The notes beneath the pieces were generated by a model. The model saw only the letters and a program-made list of their open reading frames with translations. It had not been told where the DNA came from and did no database searches. Both the position numbers and the translations under genes were made by a program. A stretch of DNA of 64,000 nt from the NCBI GenBank assembly GCA_023246655.1, contig JAHFHX010000001.1, positions 28,648 to 92,647 on the forward strand, read 5' to 3'. This stretch comes from Candidatus Magasanikiibacteriota bacterium (lineage in GTDB: Bacteria; Patescibacteriota; Patescibacteriia; Magasanikbacterales; GWA2-37-8). Shown here in pieces: positions 9,076-59,292 of the stretch. Each line of letters opens with the position of its first letter. The first letter of the stretch is position 1.

Positions 9076-9214
9076 ATTTGAGGAAAAAAATATCCCGACT
9101 CAGTCGGGATATTTTTTGTTCCTTTATTGGCAGAAGGATACCAACAAAGGAACGGACGGAACGACGGACTCCGCGCCGAGTTGCGCGGTGTCTGCCGTTC
9201 CGTAGGTGGCGGGG

Positions 9215-9556
9215 CTATGCCCGCAAGCGGTTGCGGCGGCGATACTCCTGCGTGCGCCGCCGAGAATCAATTCGCGCCCAAAGCGACCGGATGGCTTCGA
9301 GCTCCTGCTCTTCGCGCCTGGCGCGCTCAATGCCCTTCCAAATCCTCTCGCGGCGACCGTTGTCGCTCGTCCGCCGGAGCAGGTCGACGAGGTGCATCCG
9401 TCGGCGGTGCACCGCGACGGAGCCGTTGTGCAGGAGATGCTCAATCTCCTGGCGATGTCCAAGACGCAGCGCCGCATGGAGCGGTCTGTGCCCGGGATAG
9501 AGCAACTGGGCGCTACGTATTAGCCGCCCGTAGCGTACGTCATCAAGGACAGGCAT
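9215..9556 (-). CDS. GC-rich small protein (113 aa) with a single ankyrin-like repeat and Arg-rich tail
   Basis: The ATG at 9556 is preceded by AAGGAGAAGG at a 7-nt spacing. The segment YPGHRPLHAALRLGHRQEIEHLLHNGSV fits the ankyrin consensus G-TPLH-AA--GH---V--LL--GA. It lies in a GC-rich patch at 9120-9560. The opposite-strand Arg-rich ORFs are shadows. Confidence 0.4.
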   Translation of the reverse strand: MPVLDDVRYGRLIRSAQLLYPGHRPLHAALRLGHRQEIEHLLHNGSVAVHRRRMHLVDLLRRTSDNGRRERIWKGIERARREEQELEAIRSLWARIDSRRRTQEYRRRNRLRA

Positions 9557-9818: not shown

Positions 9819-10922
9819 GTGTTTAAACCATTTTCTTATCAATTTTACCGCACCACTAAAGAAGCTTGGGATGCTATGTATCAGGCTATTTTGGATGCGA
9901 CTAAATCTATTTATTGGGAAATTTATATTTTTATTGATGACGAGGCTGGAGGTAGGTTTATTGATGCGTTGTGTGACAAAGCTCGGGCTGGGGTTGAGGT
10001 AAAAATTGTGGTCGATGCTTTGGGTAGTTGGGGGTTGTCGAGCTTAGCGGAAGCGCGCCTAACCGGGGCGGGGGTAGAGGTACTTAAATATAATCGTTTG
10101 CACCCAGAATTAGCTTTGGGTCGTTGGTTTAATCGTCTGTGGCGGCGTAATCATCGTAAACTGCTTATTCTTGATGAAGAGGTCGCTTTTATTGGCGGAG
10201 TGAATGTCGAATCAAAATCTTTACTATGGAATGATTTATTTCTTAAACTTACGGGAGTCGTTGTTTGGCCACTCTTAAAGAGTTTTGCCAAAACATACGT
10301 GGCCGCGGGAGGTGATCGTCGCCGTGTGCGTCATTTGCGTCGATCACGTTTGCCGGAAGGGTTAGAAACGTTGCAGCGAAAAATTGAGTTTATTATTCAT
10401 TCGCCGTTTGGGAATAATCGTTCGCTGGTACGTAAGATGTATTACCGGAGTATTGCGGTGGCCAAAGAAAGTATTAATGTGTTGACGCCTTATTTTGTTC
10501 CAGATCGAGCCCTGATTCGATTGTTGACTCAAGCGCGTCGGCGGGGTGTAAAAATTAATTTGTTTTTACCGCAACGGCCGGATCACCAAATTATGGAATG
10601 GATTGCGCGCGCTTATTATGGCATTGTCCACCGTGCCGGAGTAAACATTTTTTTATCCAAAAAAATGAACCATGGCAAGGCCATGACCATTGATAATAAA
10701 TCCGGTTTTGTAGGGAGCTCTAACATAACCCCGCGAAGCTGGTTTATTAACGAAGAGGCTGGGGTATATTTTGACGATGCGGAGATGGCTGAGGAGTTGA
10801 ATACACTTTTTGCTCAATGGCAAACCGAAGCCGAGCCGCTTAATTTGGAACGCTGGAAAAAACGGGGGTGGCGGAGCAAAGCAAAGGAATGGTGGGCGAA
10901 GAAGATTGAGAAATATGTTTGA
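9819..10922 (+). CDS. cls: phospholipase D family protein / cardiolipin synthase-like
   Basis: Two HKD motifs: HRKLLILDEEVAFIGGVN and HGKAMTIDNKSGFVGSSN. The start is uncertain: GTG at 9819 or a downstream ATG giving MYQAIL. Confidence 0.85.
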   Translation: MFKPFSYQFYRTTKEAWDAMYQAILDATKSIYWEIYIFIDDEAGGRFIDALCDKARAGVEVKIVVDALGSWGLSSLAEARLTGAGVEVLKYNRLHPELALGRWFNRLWRRNHRKLLILDEEVAFIGGVNVESKSLLWNDLFLKLTGVVVWPLLKSFAKTYVAAGGDRRRVRHLRRSRLPEGLETLQRKIEFIIHSPFGNNRSLVRKMYYRSIAVAKESINVLTPYFVPDRALIRLLTQARRRGVKINLFLPQRPDHQIMEWIARAYYGIVHRAGVNIFLSKKMNHGKAMTIDNKSGFVGSSNITPRSWFINEEAGVYFDDAEMAEELNTLFAQWQTEAEPLNLERWKKRGWRSKAKEWWAKKIEKYV

Positions 10923-11044: not shown

Positions 11045-12349
11045 ATGTTAGAAGAAAAAAGATTACAATCAAATACTCCTTTAGCCGAGCGAATGAGACC
11101 TTGTTCATTTAACGAGTTTGTTGGTCAAGTCGATATAGTTGGGGAAGGGAAGCTCTTGCGCAAACTCATTGAGAATGATGAATTGTCCTCAATTATTTTT
11201 TGGGGTCCGCCGGGAGTAGGAAAGACTACGCTAGCGCGTATTATTGCAGAAGAGACGAAGGCGCGGTTTGTGGCGTTGTCCGGAGTGATGAGTGGGAAAG
11301 ATGATTTGCGGAAAGTGATTGAAGAAGCGCAAAGTGGAAAATCACAAATCCCAATTTCCAATGACCAAATAAATTCCAAATTCCGAGTTCCAAATCAAAC
11401 CCGGACCATTCTCTTTATTGATGAAATTCACCGCTGGAATAAGGCGCAGCAAGATGCACTGCTCCCCTATGTGGAACAGGGAATTGTGACGCTTATTGGC
11501 GCTACGACCGAGAATCCGTCGTTTGAGATTATTGGCGCGTTATTATCTCGATCGCGAGTGTTTATTTTGAAGTATTTGACGACCGAGAATATTGTTGTGC
11601 TCTTGAAGCGGGCGCTCGCCGATAAAGAAAGGGGATTAGGAAATTATAAGATTGAGATTGAGAATGAGACTTTGGAAATACTCGCGGAGCTTGCGGGTGG
11701 GGATGCGCGGGTGGCTTTGAATGGGCTCGAGTTGGCATTTAAATCGAAAGTCGGAAAGTCCGTAAAGTCTCTAAAGTCACCAATTGTAATTACAAATCAG
11801 GAAATAAAACAAGCGTTGCAGCGAACACATTTAGTGTTCGATAAAAAAGGTGAAGAATTTTATAACCTCATCTCCGCACTCCACAAATCCATGCGGGGGA
11901 GTGATCCCAATGCCTCGCTTTATTGGCTCGCACGAATGCTCGAGGGTGGTGCTGATCCTTTGTACGTCGCTCGTCGTATCCTGCGGTTTGCGAGTGAAGA
12001 TATTGGTATGGCCAATAGCGAAGCTATGATACAAGCGAATGCAGCGTATGATGCTTGCCACAAAATTGGGATGCCAGAGTGCACGGTGCATTTGGCTCAG
12101 GCAGTGGTATACTGTGCCAAATCCGCAAAATCAAATTTGTTATATAAAGCCTATCAGGCAGCAGCGAAGGATGCTCGAGAAACTTCTCAACTTGGGGTGC
12201 CAATTCATTTGCGCAACGCACCGGCAAAATTTATGGAGGAGATTGGATATGGAAAAGACTATAAGTATAATCCGGATTATGATGAACCGATAGAACAGGA
12301 TTATATGCCGGAGGAGTTGAGAGGAAGAAACTATCTTAAGAAGAAATAA
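11045..12349 (+). CDS. rarA: replication-associated recombination protein A (AAA+ ATPase RarA/MgsA)
   Basis: Walker A GPPGVGKTTLARIIA and Walker B ILFIDEIHR, plus the C-terminal MgsA helical domain. Start taken at ATG 11045 (MLEEKRLQSNTPLAERMRP). Confidence 0.88.
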   Translation: MLEEKRLQSNTPLAERMRPCSFNEFVGQVDIVGEGKLLRKLIENDELSSIIFWGPPGVGKTTLARIIAEETKARFVALSGVMSGKDDLRKVIEEAQSGKSQIPISNDQINSKFRVPNQTRTILFIDEIHRWNKAQQDALLPYVEQGIVTLIGATTENPSFEIIGALLSRSRVFILKYLTTENIVVLLKRALADKERGLGNYKIEIENETLEILAELAGGDARVALNGLELAFKSKVGKSVKSLKSPIVITNQEIKQALQRTHLVFDKKGEEFYNLISALHKSMRGSDPNASLYWLARMLEGGADPLYVARRILRFASEDIGMANSEAMIQANAAYDACHKIGMPECTVHLAQAVVYCAKSAKSNLLYKAYQAAAKDARETSQLGVPIHLRNAPAKFMEEIGYGKDYKYNPDYDEPIEQDYMPEELRGRNYLKKK

Positions 12350-12409
12350 CAAAATTCTAATGTACGAGTTATGCTAATTAACCTCTTTCATTTTAGCCAA
12401 AAAACACTT

Positions 12410-12546
12410 GTCATTCCGAATCCCCGTCGCAGGGGTGAGGAATCTCTGTCTCAATCAACCAACGACGGACAGAGAGATCCCTCCCGCCAGAGGCGGGCAG
12501 GCCTCGCGCTGTGTCCGCCTTTGGCGGAAGGCTTGCTCGGGATGAC
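12410..12546. repeat. GC-rich palindromic structured element with termini GTCATTCCGA...TCGGGATGAC, possibly a MITE-like repeat or ncRNA
   Basis: The outer inverted repeat encloses three internal hairpins (ATCTCTGTC/GACAGAGAT; CCCGCC-AGAG-GCGGG; CCGCC-TTTG-GCGG). It lies between convergent rarA and tsaE. Its termini resemble the GTCATTGCGAGG repeat family. The listed ORF 12371..12571 is probably not coding. Confidence 0.5.
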
Positions 12547-12640
12547 AAAACGGTATTTGAGCCAAATTTAGGGAAAATTAATTAGCACAACTCGTGCATT
12601 GGGGTTTAAACATTTTATTAGATATTAGGAATTAGGTGAA

Positions 12641-13742: not shown

Positions 13743-13836
13743 AAAAACATCCCGACTTAGTCGGGATGTTTTTAATTTTTTTCTCCTCGACTCTCCAGAA
13801 TCGTCCATTGCACAACTCTGGAGATTGGTCGAGGAG
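13743..13836. repeat. direct repeat copy A (terminator hairpin plus 55-bp hairpin unit)
   Basis: AAAAACATCCCGACTTAGTCGGGATGTTTTT followed by TTCTCCTCGACTCTCCAGAATCGTCCATTGCACAACTCTGGAGATTGGTCGAGGA. The 55-bp part is identical to the copy at 14672-14726. Confidence 0.85.
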
Positions 13837-14640: not shown

Positions 14641-14726
14641 AAAAACATCCCCATTGAATCGGGATGTTTTTTTCTCCTCGACTCTCCAGAATCGTCCATT
14701 GCACAACTCTGGAGATTGGTCGAGGA
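14641..14726. repeat. direct repeat copy B
   Basis: AAAAACATCCCCATTGAATCGGGATGTTTTTTT plus the same 55-bp unit as copy A. Confidence 0.85.
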
Positions 14727-15447: not shown

Positions 15448-15451
15448 CACT

Positions 15452-15563
15452 GTCATTGCGAGGAGTGAACTTCGCAGTGAACGACGAAGCAATCCCCCTT
15501 TTTGTGAGAAAGTTGGTGGCGCAATAAGGGGGATTGCCGCGTCGCTTCGCTCCTCGCAATGAC
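15452..15563. repeat. palindromic MITE/REP-like element, copy 1
   Basis: GTCATTGCGAGGAG...CGACGAAGCAATCCCCC / GGGGGATTGCCGCGTCG...CTCCTCGCAATGAC, a long imperfect hairpin between gatC and gatA. Copies occur at 59169-59283 (full) and 21746-21793 (partial). Confidence 0.85.
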
Positions 15564-15570
15564 AAATACT

Positions 15571-21745: not shown

Positions 21746-21793
21746 GTCATTGCGAGGAAGACGATTCGCATCGGCTGACTTGGCAATCCCCCT
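21746..21793. repeat. partial (left-arm) copy of the GTCATTGCGAGGA palindromic element
   Basis: GTCATTGCGAGGAAGACGATTCGCATCG...GCAATCCCCC with no right arm. It sits between hrcA and grpE. Confidence 0.7.
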
Positions 21794-32586: not shown

Positions 32587-32613
32587 ATAATCAGTAGAAA
32601 AAAACATCCCGAC

Positions 32614-33024
32614 TTAGTCGGGATGTTTTTGATTATCTAAAATTTTATTCACCTCCGCATCCGCCTCTTTGTTCCCGGCACGCATGGTGTGGCGATACGT
32701 TACTTTTTTAAATTGCGTGGCAGTGTTGTAGACCTGCATAAATAATTTTTGGAGTGTTGGCTCTTTCACTTTGTACTCTCCTCGCATTTGTTTTACGATC
32801 AGTTCGCTATCGAGTACGCAGTGAACTTCGGTCGCACCAAGCTCTTTAGCTTTTTTGAGAGCAGAAATAAGGGCCGAGTACTCAGCAAAGTTATTAGTTT
32901 GGTGCCCCAAATATTCGCCATAGTGCGCCAGCACAACGCCCGCCTCATTTTTGATAACAATGCCAGCGGCAGCTGGCCCCGGGTTGCCACGCGCTCCGCC
33001 ATCGGTGTGGGTGATTAATTTCAT
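32614..33024 (-). CDS. rnhA: ribonuclease HI
   Basis: THTDGGARGNPGPAAAGIVIK and the catalytic E/D/D/H pattern (EYSALISAL, HCVLDSELIVKQ, GNKEADAEVNKIL), ~136 aa. Confidence 0.88.
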   Translation of the reverse strand: MKLITHTDGGARGNPGPAAAGIVIKNEAGVVLAHYGEYLGHQTNNFAEYSALISALKKAKELGATEVHCVLDSELIVKQMRGEYKVKEPTLQKLFMQVYNTATQFKKVTYRHTMRAGNKEADAEVNKILDNQKHPD

Positions 33025-33131
33025 AACACAGATTACGCAGATTAATAAATTGGATTACGCAGATTAGTGATAGTGATTACAGAGATTTCCAAATCCGTGT
33101 AATCCTCACCGTTAATCCGCGTAATCGGTGT
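33025..33131. promoter_or_regulatory. cluster of five GATTACRCRG / TGYRTAATC repeats upstream of rnhA
   Basis: Read on the minus strand, the copy proximal to rnhA is TAATCTGCGTAATCTGTGTTATG with ATG as the start codon. This matches the motifs at 47891-47928 and 56952-56990. Confidence 0.6.
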
Positions 33132-34472
33132 TTAATATGGTAGTTTCCAAAGTCCCTGGTTATCTACAAAGTAGAGTATACGCCTCGATGTATCTACGGT
33201 AAAGGCAGAAATTGATTGTGGGGCCAGTTCTTGTTCAATATTATAGCTAGAAAAAAGAATAGCAAGTTTATTGCCTCGGAGGAGTGCTAGAGTAGCTTCA
33301 TCGAGTGGTAACACCTGGGCAAGAGTATCACTAAAACGGTTAATTAGATATGGTTCACCTTCTTCCGGAAAGTCCCAAAGTTCCCACGGTGTCCAGATGA
33401 TCCACTCACCTGATTTTAATGAACGAACAAATTGTCCCTGGCTGAATTGTCGGTATTTATTTGGAGTCACCAGAAGCAATTCGTTAGAATGCAATTGTTT
33501 AAGCCACACAACGGCTTTATGAGCGGCTGCTATTCTCCATCCAGACGTAGTTGCGTTGGTTGGTAGTGTGATAGTGGTCCAGGGAGTCATAAAACCAAGT
33601 ACATCTTTGATAATCCGGAGTTGCCCAGTGGTGGTACTGTTTTCAAGAGCCCACAATTCTCCGTCATCTATATGCCAATCCATAAAGGTATGGGTGGCAA
33701 CAGGAAGCTGGTGTTGAAGGCGTGGGAAGAGTACGTTAAGGGTTGTGCTGGTATTATAATAGAGTTCTGGTTCAGTAGTATTTCGCCACTCAAAAGAGAT
33801 AATCGGTGCTGAAGTTGTTGATTGTATATCAAATTGATGTTCTATATTTTCACTATCAATTACCACCAGTGTTGGTGAAGAGTTTGAATTATCTGTGAGG
33901 GCCAAGAAATTCGTGCGAGGTGCCCAGATCAAACGAACTGGTTTTAAGGAAGCGATGCTCCGAATGTGGAGAAAGATTTTCTTTTGAGTATTATATAGCC
34001 AGAGTTCAGTGCTACTCGCTGAAGAGGCTTTAGTATAGGCCAGATATTGACCATCAGTTGAAAGAGCAATTTTAGGGATCGTGCCTGTAGCTATTTGTTC
34101 AGGTGATGCCTTTTTTAGTAAATGAATATTATTAATATAGGTAGTTTGTTCATTCGTAACTACAATTTGTTTTTCCCAATCATAATAATTGGGGGCGCTG
34201 ATACGCAATCGGTATGTCTGGGGCTTAATGTTTGTTAAGCGAATCGGTATATCTTTATGGATAAGCAGATCATTCAAGTACACCACAGCATTTTTAGGAA
34301 GTATATCAATATTAACGCTCCCCGTTGCCTTGAGTAGACCGTTTTTTATGTCGTAGCGAAATCCAGCAGTATAGAGGAGTACAGCTGGTACCAGTACACA
34401 AAATAAGAAGATAAAAATACCCAGTACGAATAATCGCCAGGGACGGGTAAACACAGCGCCAGGATACTCCAT
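33132..34472 (-). CDS. hypothetical membrane-anchored protein (446 aa)
   Basis: N-terminal TM segment WRLFVLGIFIFLFCVLVPAVLLY followed by a large extracytoplasmic domain. No recognisable motif. Confidence 0.5.
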   Translation of the reverse strand: MEYPGAVFTRPWRLFVLGIFIFLFCVLVPAVLLYTAGFRYDIKNGLLKATGSVNIDILPKNAVVYLNDLLIHKDIPIRLTNIKPQTYRLRISAPNYYDWEKQIVVTNEQTTYINNIHLLKKASPEQIATGTIPKIALSTDGQYLAYTKASSASSTELWLYNTQKKIFLHIRSIASLKPVRLIWAPRTNFLALTDNSNSSPTLVVIDSENIEHQFDIQSTTSAPIISFEWRNTTEPELYYNTSTTLNVLFPRLQHQLPVATHTFMDWHIDDGELWALENSTTTGQLRIIKDVLGFMTPWTTITLPTNATTSGWRIAAAHKAVVWLKQLHSNELLLVTPNKYRQFSQGQFVRSLKSGEWIIWTPWELWDFPEEGEPYLINRFSDTLAQVLPLDEATLALLRGNKLAILFSSYNIEQELAPQSISAFTVDTSRRILYFVDNQGLWKLPY

Positions 34473-47897: not shown

Positions 47898-47925
47898 TCC
47901 TCACAAAATCTGCATAATCTGTGTT

Positions 47926-48540
47926 ATGAAAGTCATTCATATTATTCCCTCAGCCTTTAGTTATTTTGATGATATTCGTTCCAATGCGTTTTATGTGGTA
48001 GATAATCTCAGCAAGATTGGGGTAGAAACAGAGGCTATTACTATTGAGTTTGGGATGACGGTACCCACTGCTGTTCGTGAAGCGATTGGGGAAGAAGCAC
48101 CTTCCCAAAAATATCAGGGACTGGCTCCCATGTCTCAGGTTATGGCATCGCTCGATCAGTTTGATATTATTCACGTCCATTGTCCGCTGTTTGGTGCCGC
48201 GGGAAAAATTCTTAGTTGGAAGCGCCAGCATCCTAACCGCTGTTTAGTAGTAACCTACTATCGCCGGGTAATGATACCAGATTTTTTTAGCTTACTCATC
48301 GTTGCCTATAATTTTTATTATCTACCACGTTTGCTGGCCGCGGCGGAAGTAGTAATAACCCCGGCATTACGTAGTATGCCTTGGAGCTTACAACGCCGGA
48401 ATCAACGGATAATTGAAATTGATGAATCTCCTAGTTTTAACGGCGTTGATGTGACAGTTAACCCGGATGGAGAAGTGTTATCTCCCGGAGAGCAGCTTGC
48501 CATGAAATATGCCATGGTGTATACTACTATCGTTAATTAA
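47926..48540 (+). CDS. hypothetical protein resembling the N-terminal domain of GT4 glycosyltransferases
   Basis: MKVIHIIPSAFSYFDD...FDIIHVHCPLFGAAG is GT4-N-like. The start codon is embedded in the conserved TAATCTGTGTTATG motif. Confidence 0.5.
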   Translation: MKVIHIIPSAFSYFDDIRSNAFYVVDNLSKIGVETEAITIEFGMTVPTAVREAIGEEAPSQKYQGLAPMSQVMASLDQFDIIHVHCPLFGAAGKILSWKRQHPNRCLVVTYYRRVMIPDFFSLLIVAYNFYYLPRLLAAAEVVITPALRSMPWSLQRRNQRIIEIDESPSFNGVDVTVNPDGEVLSPGEQLAMKYAMVYTTIVN

Positions 48541-56839: not shown

Positions 56840-56987
56840 CCGGCTTGTTTCTTGTAGTATAGCAATAAAGTTCGTTTTTGCCTAGCCTAGACTATATTGC
56901 TCTTTTGTTAAGCGACTGATATACTTAACACAGATTATGCGGATTACAATCTGTGTAATCCTCACAAAAATGTGTGTAATCTGTGTT

Positions 56988-58457
56988 ATGCGTATTACTT
57001 TTTTCGGTGCCGCCGGTGAGGTAACTGGTTCTTGTAGTCTGCTTGAAGTCGGTCCCTATAGAATTCTAATTGATTGCGGGATGTTTCAGGGCAGCCTTGA
57101 AATGGAAGCTATGAATCATCAGGCATTACCTTTTGATCCTAAGAGTTTGACCCATGTTTTTATTACCCATGCGCATCTTGACCATACCGGCCGGCTGCCG
57201 CTCTTGGTTAAGCAGGGGTATGTTGGCTATTTTTATGCCACTGCCCCCACCATGGAGCTCGCGGAATTGGTCATGCGGGACGCTCATGGCATCATGTTAT
57301 ATGATCATCAACATTTTGGTCGGCCAATTCTATATGGCGAAGAAGATATTGCTGGTGTAATGACCCAGTTTAAGACGGTGGAGTATGGGGAAGAGATGGA
57401 ATTCCCCGCTTGGGCGGGGAAGGCCTCGCAGCCAGGGGTGGGTGAGACCATTGAGTCGCCACTTGCCACTGCCACGCAACGACCTCACCCACCCCTACCC
57501 CGCCCAAGCGGGGAATCGAACGTTGCCGAAAGTGTCACCGTCACCTTCCACGACGTCGGCCACATTTTTGGTTCGGCCTTTATTGAGATCAGAGCCGAAG
57601 GCAAAAAAATTGTTTTCTCCGGAGATGTCGGCAACGTTCATGTGCCAATTTTACGCGATACAGAACCACTCCCGTCTAACCTTGATCTCTTGGTGTGTGA
57701 GTCCACGTACGGCGATCGCCTGCATGAAGTGCAGGCCACGCGTGAAGAAATGATTGAACAAGCGATCCTTAACGCCGTTAAAGGTGGGGGAGTGCTTATG
57801 ATTCCGTCATTTGCTTTGGAACGGACCCAAGAACTTATTTATGAACTTAACAAACTCATTGATCACAAACATAAACTAACCAACGTCCCCATTTATCTGG
57901 ACAGCCCGCTCGCCATTGATGCTACCAAAGTGTATCGCAAGTACCCACAATATTATGACGAAAAAGCCGCCGAATATTTTAAAGAGGGTGATGATATTTT
58001 TACCTTTCCTAATCTCATTACCACTTATTCTCGGGAAGAGTCAATGAAAATTAATCACACGCCGGGCCCCAAAGTTATTATCGCTGGCGCCGGCATGATG
58101 AACGGCGGCCGCATCCTCCATCACGCTCTTCATTATTTATCTGATGCCCGTAACACCATTCTTTTCATCGGCTATCAATCACCCAGCACCCTCGGCCGAC
58201 AAATTATGGAAGGCCACTCTCCGGTCACGGTGCACGGTGAACGCGTAGTCGTTAAATGCCAAATAAAAGTTATGGGCGCGCTCTCGGCGCACGGCGATCA
58301 AAATAAACTGGTGAGTTGGATTAGCGCCGGTCGGCCCAAAAGAGTTATCTTCAATCATGGGGAACCCGGGCCCTCTGCGGCGGTGGCGAAAAGGTTGCAG
58401 CAAGAATGCGGTGTTGAAGCTGCTCCAGCAGTGCTCAATTCAACCGTTATTGTTTGA
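56988..58457 (+). CDS. MBL-fold metallo-hydrolase, RNA-metabolising beta-CASP nuclease (RNase J-like)
   Basis: MRITFFGAAGEVTGSC and HAHLDHTGRLP (HxHxDH), plus beta-CASP motifs. Contains an in-frame 38-codon GC-rich insert at 57402-57515. The start codon is embedded in the conserved upstream motif. Confidence 0.8.
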   Translation: MRITFFGAAGEVTGSCSLLEVGPYRILIDCGMFQGSLEMEAMNHQALPFDPKSLTHVFITHAHLDHTGRLPLLVKQGYVGYFYATAPTMELAELVMRDAHGIMLYDHQHFGRPILYGEEDIAGVMTQFKTVEYGEEMEFPAWAGKASQPGVGETIESPLATATQRPHPPLPRPSGESNVAESVTVTFHDVGHIFGSAFIEIRAEGKKIVFSGDVGNVHVPILRDTEPLPSNLDLLVCESTYGDRLHEVQATREEMIEQAILNAVKGGGVLMIPSFALERTQELIYELNKLIDHKHKLTNVPIYLDSPLAIDATKVYRKYPQYYDEKAAEYFKEGDDIFTFPNLITTYSREESMKINHTPGPKVIIAGAGMMNGGRILHHALHYLSDARNTILFIGYQSPSTLGRQIMEGHSPVTVHGERVVVKCQIKVMGALSAHGDQNKLVSWISAGRPKRVIFNHGEPGPSAAVAKRLQQECGVEAAPAVLNSTVIV

Positions 58458-58649
58458 TTCAATTTCTGGTATGTATTTCACAAAGCTTAAAAATATTTTG
58501 CAGAAAAATAAACTATTTTTTATTTTGGTGATCGCTAAGCATTTTAGATAATAAACGTTTTTAAAATAACTTATCCACAATCCCGACTCAGTCGGGATTT
58601 TTTGTTGTACATTAGCCAAAATTACGTAGATATTTTTTGGTGTAAAGTG

Positions 58650-59166: not shown

Positions 59167-59168
59167 CT

Positions 59169-59283
59169 GTCATTGCGAGGAGGAGCTTGGCAGCGACGAC
59201 GAAGCAATCTCCCCGTTTAAGAAATTTTTAGACAGGGGGATTGCCGCGTCGTCCCGATGCGAATCGGGACTCCTCGCAATGAC
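59169..59283. repeat. palindromic MITE/REP-like element, copy 3 (full length)
   Basis: GTCATTGCGAGGAGGAGC...CGACGAAGCAATCTCCCC ... GGGGGATTGCCGCGTCG...GGACTCCTCGCAATGAC. It sits between mraZ and rsmH. Confidence 0.85.
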
Positions 59284-59292
59284 ACAAAAAAT

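Follow-up and report, generated by a model that had tools for sequence, protein, structure and literature searches.

Intergenic palindromes of a Magasanikbacteria genome resemble inverted pairs of Ssn-related hairpin motifs

Short palindromic elements lie between genes in a 64,000-nucleotide stretch of DNA (the window) from a metagenome-assembled genome of a Candidatus Magasanikiibacteriota bacterium, a member of the Patescibacteria. We propose that each element is an inverted pair of Ssn-related motifs (SRMs) on which an Ssn nuclease would act, and we put the probability of this explanation as a whole, including the action by an Ssn, at about 0.6. Homology of the window elements to SRMs is, taken on its own, very probable. 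They are most aptly classed with the SRM/NTS hairpin repeats that go with Ssn nucleases, not as a new kind of element; what is new about them is their split stems, their inverted-doublet form and their Patescibacteria host. Hairpin repeats of this class, characterized in 2025 mainly in Pseudomonadati, are thereby extended to a candidate-phylum genome.

The reference system is that of Chenal et al. (Nat Commun 2025, PMC11893778), who define the Neisseria NTS as CGTCATTCCCGCGMAVGCGGGAATCYRG, a sequence that contains dRS3, together with a variant, CGTCATACTCGGG-N5-CCCGAGTATC, and the degenerate SRM. SsnA is a 94-amino-acid single-domain GIY-YIG protein (cd10448) that binds the hairpin only as single-stranded DNA, nicks it a few nucleotides upstream and does not bind RNA. 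For the enzyme of N. meningitidis, cleavage depends most on the three bases before the palindrome (GTC) and binding most on the C that follows the palindrome, and the NTS loop is dispensable, replaceable or extendable. SRMs lie near 71% of ssn genes, and Rickettsia and Wolbachia are listed among the SRM-rich genomes (PMC11893778). Literature searches with TGC-type DNA strings or repeat-derived peptides returned no relevant paper by full text; the work of Chenal et al. was found solely through a related string, GTCATTCCCGC.

Palindromic elements of the window

The window holds two full palindromes (112 and 115 nt), one diverged full copy and one single arm (Table 1). The first-pass annotation had reported near-perfect palindromes with inverted termini at 15452-15563 and 59169-59283, and their sequences and folds are as it described, including an internal inverted pair, GCAATCCCCC/GGGGGATTGC, present in both. 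The two full copies are identical in 89 of 114 aligned columns. They have in common the outer stem and the inner stem (GACGAAGCAATCC.../...GGATTGCCGCGTC) and differ in side hairpins and loops, a modular likeness that is not limited to the short termini, as the annotation had allowed it might be. The conserved unit extends to the flanking T and A (TGTCAT...ATGACA). The terminal 14-mer GTCATTGCGAGGAG occurs at five sites when up to two mismatches are allowed, exactly at 15452+, 15550-, 59169+ and 59270- and with one mismatch at 21746+; the mean in shuffled sequence is 0.26, and five sites were reached in none of 100 shuffles.

Table 1. Positions and composition of the SRM-like elements in the window
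Feature	Position	Strand	Description
Doublet, gatC/gatA	15451..15564	.	Inverted pair of TGC-type SRM-like arms; outer stem TGTCATTGCGAGGAG/CTCCTCGCAATGACA, inner stem GACGAAGCAATCCCCC/GGGGGATTGCCGCGTC; gatC stop 15447, gatA likely start 15571
Left arm of 15451..15564	15452..15494	+	Forward motif on top strand, GTC-ATTGC...GCAAT-C
Right arm of 15451..15564	15532..15563	-	Forward motif on bottom strand, GTCATTGCGAGGAGCGAAGCGACGCGGCAATC
Doublet, mraZ/rsmH	59168..59284	.	Inverted TGC-type arms; cloverleaf with two side hairpins; mraZ stop 59166, rsmH likely start 59293
Left arm of 59168..59284	59169..59209	+	GTCATTGCGAGGAGGAGCTTGGCAGCGACGACGAAGCAATC
Right arm of 59168..59284	59239..59283	-	GTCATTGCGAGGAGTCCCGATTCGCATCGGGACGACGCGGCAATC
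Single TGC-type arm, hrcA/grpE	21746..21788	+	GTCATTGCGAGGAA...TTGGCAATC; without inverted partner
Doublet of another subtype	12409..12547	.	Between convergent rarA/mgsA-like gene (+) and TsaE-domain gene (-)
Left arm of 12409..12547	12410-12444	+	TCC-type
Right arm of 12409..12547	12476-12546	-	CCC-type, long side hairpin

The sequence at 12410-12546, previously suggested as a possible diverged relative, is a true relative of another subtype: its outer (GTCATTCCGA.../...TCGGGATGAC) and inner (GAGGAATC/GATCCCTC) stems keep the doublet plan with different letters. The sequence at 21746 had been taken for a left-arm remnant; it is instead a complete single arm (GTCATTGCGAG...GGCAATC) and not necessarily a remnant. 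All copies had been assigned to co-transcribed spacers, which is correct for the three of four that lie between co-directional genes but not for the copy at 12410, whose neighbors are convergent. The general description still holds: the family is palindromic and non-coding, is dispersed in multiple copies through short intergenic spacers and is of the REP/MITE kind. The REP/MITE-like label is apt in spirit; the terminal inverted repeats, however, are not those of a transposase with target-site duplications. Neither the four window sites nor three nested junctions in related genomes have such a duplication, and the T...A that flanks the window copies merely continues the palindrome.

A common arm plan with covarying triplets

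Each arm follows the plan (T)GTC + AT-XYZ ... variable insert ... Z'Y'X'-AT + C. All seven arms of the window open with (T/C)GTCAT, placing GTC directly 5' of the palindrome, and all seven have C directly 3' of it. Each closes with ...AATC or ...GATC, where the triplet is complementary to that after GTCAT. Across subtypes the triplets after GTCAT and before ATC change together (TGC/GCA, TCC/GGA, TTC/GAA, TCT/AGA and CCT/AGG), and in relatives of the window genome corresponding places are taken by other subtypes. Among 107 candidate arms from loci not selected by subtype, 40 have complementary triplets against ~1.8% expected, an enrichment of ~20-fold over chance that spans 12 triplet types. 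This complementarity across subtypes identifies each palindrome half as an oriented hairpin motif, GTC-palindrome(AT...)-C. A full element consists of two such motifs in inverted order, with the same XYZ in all four half-sites.

Because the arms are inverted copies of each other, the whole element can fold as one long hairpin or cloverleaf. As RNA, the full copies reach -64.8 and -69.1 kcal/mol (z = -10.4 and -9.5), the same on either strand, and form near-perfect hairpins or cloverleaves with small side hairpins; the whole doublet as DNA reaches -41.8 kcal/mol (z = -9.0). Isolated arms (32-71 nt) give weak DNA folds of -5 to -12 kcal/mol. None of these beats its shuffles (z from -1.8 to +0.6), and two of six form the AT-XYZ/Z'Y'X'-AT pairing that closes the side hairpin. 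When the right arm 59239..59283 is folded alone as DNA, ATTGC/GCAAT closes the side hairpin at -11.6 kcal/mol; the lone arm between hrcA and grpE has no significant fold (z = 0.01). At the Rfam gathering threshold, only two tRNAs pass in the whole window, and a permissive search around 15452-15563 returned only weak matches to long-hairpin miRNAs, with at most 29 bits against cut-offs of 47-119. On reading the sequence we saw no terminator U-run after the hairpins, no attC core site and no REP GTAG head.

Relation to the published motifs

The window arms share with SRMs and the NTS an oriented hairpin in which (C/T)GTC lies directly 5' of a palindrome opening with AT and C lies directly 3' of it. 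They also share an occurrence in many intergenic copies across bacterial phyla, and in other genomes same-plan arms enclose small GIY-YIG genes of a single domain. The positions critical for cleavage and binding by SsnA are precisely those whose letters do not vary among the window arms. However, published SRMs are simple hairpins of 20-50 nt, whereas the window stem has only ~5 bp (ATTGC/GCAAT), followed by a GAG/CGA junction and an inserted side hairpin, and the arms form tail-to-tail inverted doublets that fold as a cloverleaf of 112-137 nt. The Patescibacteria host also sets them apart, as this group is absent from the main text of PMC11893778, and an ssn gene has so far not been found in sequences of the Magasanikbacteria lineage.

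The published SRM search sequence, HGTCWYN(0-2)YYVSBRHN(0-5)WNVSBRGN(0-2)RNCYNB (PMC11893778), is an operational tool built from 29 genomes and not a biochemical definition. It has no match in the window, one in the Magasanikbacteria relative L125 (in an arm of the nested element at the gatC/gatA site) and two in a Tisiphia locus (L033), whose arms are of canonical SRM form. Since the form described here is missed by this pattern, current motif counts are probably underestimates. The NTS has dRS3 (ATTCCC-N8-GGGAAT) as its palindromic core. The TCC-CGC arms of L125 and L033 are of dRS3 type, whereas the window types (TGC and TCC-GAG) differ from dRS3/NIME in having other cores and split stems. 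In Neisseria, phage integration and recombination hot spots have been described at dRS3 copies (PMC11893778).

Distribution of the family

The annotation had named as a refutation the case that only the window copies exist and that relatives lack them; copies in fact extend far beyond the source genome. A scan of one genome per species with the pattern GTCATTGCGAG-N75-105-CTCGCAATGAC found at least 120 loci in many phyla. The matches listed include Bradyrhizobium, Chloroflexus, Mucilaginibacter/Pedobacter, Ignavibacteria, Legionellales, Coxiellaceae, Tisiphia, Helicobacter, Clostridia, Atribacterota, Planctomycetes and several candidate phyla. All copies are laid out as an outer stem, an optional side hairpin (often GCGAAGC-like), an inner stem CGAAGCAATC[C/T], a loop and the mirror image of these parts.

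Doublets are rare in viral contigs (50 loci among 2.9 million), and BLASTN of the element against plasmids and phages gave three and three short partial matches with uninformative annotation. When the ORFs lying up to 1.2-1.5 kb from 120 genomic doublets and from 50 in viral contigs were clustered all-versus-all, no recurrent neighbor gene emerged; the clusters reflected only the repeat's own translation or the shared synteny of prophages.

Same-plan doublets beside Ssn-type genes

Ssn-type genes were obtained by tblastn from plasmid records; among them is the gonococcal ortholog of SsnA, amid 17 NTS copies. Ssn-type proteins align with this ortholog, and the residues Y7, Y17 and E64 are invariant; these are the positions of the residues mutated in SsnA (Y6, Y17 and E64 in N. 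meningitidis numbering, PMC11893778). A window-like doublet, TGTCATTCTGAGTGAAACGAAGAATC...GATCCTTCA...TTCAGGATGACA, lies beside an Ssn-type gene in Planktothrix (L212), and doublets of the same plan flank such genes in Spirosoma (L214), Azospirillum (L216), Rhizobium (L215) and the cyanobacteria-like contigs L219 and L223. Among Ssn-type loci from IMG/VR, GTCAT arms are present within 450 nt in 22 of 31 and on both sides in 14 of 31. The layout [+arm]-ssn-[-arm], equivalent to a doublet with the gene in its loop, was seen in 12 loci, and [doublet]-ssn-[doublet] in four. TGC-type arms adjoin Ssn genes in two loci only, L225 (62 nt upstream) and L232 (on both sides). One arm of the Magasanikbacteria relative L123 (12807-12831) is identical at 25 of 25 positions to the arms that flank ssn in Planktothrix. 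GIY-YIG is the only gene family that we saw bracketed by GTCAT arms.

Searches that included hmmsearch with an Ssn profile found no Ssn-type ORF in the window, in ~60 kb of four relatives or in 177 TGC/TGC doublet loci (1.44 Mb). Likewise, no nuclease or transposase partner was present among the 33 window ORFs scanned against Pfam, and in a protein search for a Magasanikbacteria Ssn the best 120 matches were all cyanobacteria-like.

Some Ssn-type genes and their arms are placed between linked or conserved neighbors, namely sufB/sufC (L216), hsdM/hsdS (L223), hflX/mazG (L213) and MmeI/drmA (L212), a placement that resembles that of free-standing homing-endonuclease genes.

A different GIY-YIG family of ~80 amino acids ('...ERYLKSGSGKAF...'), found in Komeilibacteria (L120), was considered as a candidate and rejected as the wrong family: a GTCAT arm is near 7 of 80 loci, which is no enrichment. 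These genes (L120 650-1006(-), L129-L208; ...FERYLKSGSGKAFL.KRL) sit by tRNA genes. Enriched in the 260 nt upstream of the L129-L208 genes are the tRNA-end words TAGCTCAG and CTCCACCA (17 of 80 each) and GCGAAGG-type words (25 of 80). In L120, two tandem 115-nt repeats separate the GIY-YIG gene from an apparent tRNA 3' end.

Gain and loss in related genomes

Named relatives whose GatA is 74-80% identical to that of the window are Magasanikbacteria. Five orthologous spacers were compared among five Magasanikbacteria genomes (the window, L123, L125, L126 and L128); a genome stands outside a given comparison where the contig read does not reach the spacer or where it has no comparable one. The gatC/gatA spacer holds the TGC doublet in the window, a PDDEXK_3 gene in L123 and, in both L125 and L128, a doublet with a second doublet nested in its loop; in L126 it is empty (3 nt). 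The gatA/ldc spacer is occupied in L128 and empty in the window, L123, L125 and L126. Between ldc and lgt, an element is present in L123 and L128 and absent from the window and L125, L126 being outside the comparison. The 3' side of tsaE is occupied in the window and L128 and empty in L123 (L125 and L126 are outside the comparison). For hrcA/grpE, where L123, L125 and L126 are outside the comparison, the window has the single arm and L128 an unrelated palindrome, CCCTCTCCCTAGGGAGAGGG...CCCCTCTCCTTGAGGAGAGGG, at 12070-12194.

This patchy occupancy, sometimes with nested copies, suggests gain and loss of doublets. At ~80% GatA identity, the differences do not separate recent insertion from old insertion followed by loss. 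A search for strain-level variants at the mraZ/rsmH and gatC/gatA junctions returned identical contigs only. Beside some doublets (L212, L027 and L004/L040, the last pair from Chloroflexus) the 5' termini are tandemly stuttered, which may be scars of repeated cutting and repair at that boundary.

A model for Ssn action on doublets

The arm hairpin would become available when DNA is single-stranded, as in the lagging-strand template or in incoming transforming or conjugative DNA, and would then represent the type of site bound sequence-specifically by small single-domain GIY-YIG Ssn nucleases. Ssn would nick a few nucleotides 5' of GTC, which for the left arm 15452..15494 predicts a nick a few nucleotides 5' of 15452. 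A doublet would thus receive two nicks just outside the element, one per strand. Because isolated arms fold weakly, GTC and the trailing C would be hidden within the duplex of the long hairpin if the DNA were fully single-stranded; an arm could be recognized only if it folded first or if just half of the element were unwound.

The geometry of [+arm]-ssn-[-arm] is the same as that of a doublet, so doublets look like cargo-less miniatures of that unit. How SRM repeats multiply was left open by Chenal et al. (PMC11893778); a testable model is offered by the geometry of the doublets, which have a predicted nick beyond either end and whose arms are arranged in the same way around ssn. In its most speculative form, which we advance only tentatively, doublets would be the non-autonomous form of a selfish [arm]-ssn-[arm] unit: Ssn would nick outside the arms, and repair or copying would spread the hairpin-bounded segment. 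Were this so, a class of 'MITE' would be driven by a hydrolytic GIY-YIG single-strand nuclease and not by a transposase, would be active even in streamlined Patescibacteria, where it could land in the loops of other doublets and in operon spacers, and would carry in its XYZ triplet an address that co-evolves with the nuclease. The proposed explanation as such holds that Magasanikbacteria doublets were gained, lost and nested in short spacers, among them the spacers of operons, where they are tolerated.

Dependence on the uptake of foreign DNA is commonly proposed for Patescibacteria. If they do depend on it, cut sites specific for single-stranded DNA and spread across operons could shape recombination tracts, as such sites were shown to do in Neisseria.

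Alternative explanations

One alternative, the functional idea of the annotation, is that the elements act in RNA once operons are transcribed, as RNase III-type processing sites or 3' stabilizers that set the differential expression of gatC/gatA, mraZ/rsmH and hrcA/grpE. In its favor, the RNA folds have an extreme stability, co-directional genes flank three of the four copies and a same-plan element occupies the gatC/gatA spacer in three of five genomes despite ~80% protein identity. However, the elements are two-fold symmetric, both strands fold equally well, one copy lies between convergent genes and the hrcA/grpE copy is a lone arm that lacks a significant fold. The GTC, AT..AT and C letters are kept across phyla and around ssn genes, beyond what pairing needs. 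Relative to transcription, heterotypic TCT/CCT doublets are found either way round (L212 versus L223), with a U.G pair in the sense strand of L212, L123 and L128 but a C.A mismatch in that of L223. The same spacers are empty in the close relative L126, and hence no conserved regulatory need is evident; nor does any Rfam family match, and RNA is not a ligand of SsnA. Symmetry, orientation and distribution thus disfavor RNA as the primary site of function, which we regard as improbable, although the elements may have a secondary effect on operon expression. A very stable hairpin on polycistronic mRNA would most simply be a by-product. The elements might alternatively be inert relics, that is, SRM-type repeats of past origin, by descent or acquisition, in a genome that has lost or never had a matching Ssn, retained only because deletion from tight spacers is rare. 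An Ssn gene was not found in any Magasanikbacteria sequence examined, and 19% of genomes with more than 200 SRMs have no ssn homolog (PMC11893778). A palindrome within an ORF (57401-57516) and the lone arm at 21746 may, judging by eye, be decayed copies. Yet both TGC doublets retain perfect 14-mer termini and near-perfect arm complementarity, which is unexpected in old neutral DNA, and relatives carry several subtypes and nested copies, which indicates that turnover continues. Moreover, the sequence examined amounts to ~120 kb of a genome expected to be ~1 Mb, a size typical for the group. On balance we find it unlikely that the elements are relics.

A non-autonomous transposon of a classical kind, whether a MITE that depends on a DDE transposase or a REPIN mobilized by a Y1 enzyme of the RAYT/IS200 type, would account for short, palindromic, multi-copy intergenic elements with nested insertions and variable occupancy, and a parallel to REP/RAYT was drawn by the authors of the Ssn paper themselves (PMC11893778). 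The parallel is instructive. As with REP/REPIN-RAYT and BIME sequences, the hairpin repeats are short, the unit that looks mobile is an inverted doublet, and the repeat family is linked, in other genomes, to a nuclease gene present in one copy with repeats on its flanks; the location, too, is in operon spacers and at 3' ends without target duplication. The nuclease fold is GIY-YIG, however, not HUH/Y1, and the head is GTCAT, not the GTAG that is the REP hallmark. REP sequences are species-specific, whereas the GTCAT-arm motif frame is common to many phyla. With Rickettsia palindromic elements (RPE) and other bacterial MITEs (Correia, ERIC) they share the form of 100-150-bp palindromes scattered in small genomes, and the in-frame palindrome of the window recalls RPE, but TA or other target duplications and a DDE partner are lacking. 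Further against transposition of this kind are the lack of duplications at the window copies and nested junctions, the lack of a recurrent transposase-like neighbor in the 120 + 50 loci and of any transposase, Y1 or rve domain among the 33 window ORFs scanned, and the observation that GIY-YIG is the only gene family seen bracketed by arms. A search for a parent IS with the same ends as the window elements found none. We consider a classical transposon highly unlikely, and prefer inverted pairs of Ssn-related motifs as the explanation of these elements.

Gene starts and other repeats

The termini of the repeats contain false ATGs, within CAATGAC for gatA and within GATGCGAATC for rsmH. It had been pointed out that the gatA start listed at 15559 lies in a repeat terminus and that the true start is probably 15571, and indeed four relatives begin at the Met equivalent to 15571. 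The ORF start of rsmH at 59257 is also inside a repeat, and from the sequence the true start is likely to be 59293 (MRHIPVL). Translation of the repeat (for example as ...IGTPRNDT...) is likely to give rise to spurious ORFs and N-terminal extensions. Annotators should therefore mask these repeats, which yield false starts such as gatA 15559 and rsmH 59257 and peptides like ...PRNDT....

The palindrome at 57401-57516 is a 116-nt, near-perfect palindrome read in frame within a beta-CASP RNase gene (ORF 56988-58457, with Lactamase_B, Beta-Casp and RMMBL domains); the Lactamase_B_6 alignment ends at residue 139, where the palindrome starts. Its arms (CCCCGC-TTGG-GCGGGGAA / CCCCGC-CCAA-GCGGGGAATC) look like a decayed CCCC-type arm, and the whole is an RPE-like in-frame insertion.

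A second family, of terminator-like hairpins (AAAAACATCCCGACTnAGTCGGGATGTTTTT), is unrelated to the GTCAT elements and has five copies in the window (9086-9120, 13743-13777, 14641-14675, 32600-32634 and 58574-58608). Directly after two of these hairpins lie the copies of an exact 60-nt direct repeat, an imperfect palindrome found at 13776-13835 and 14667-14726, 891 nt apart. Short repeats of the GATTACGCAGATT / ATCTGGAT type occur in the window at 33014-33132, 47907-47938 and 56914-56945 and in L123 at 9460-9500 and 9970-10000, and one of the copies extends into what appears to be the N-terminus of ORF 56937. Repeats similar to these flank the PF13366 PDDEXK_3 gene in the gatC/gatA spacer of L123 and L124, the latter from the same ENA sample as the window genome.
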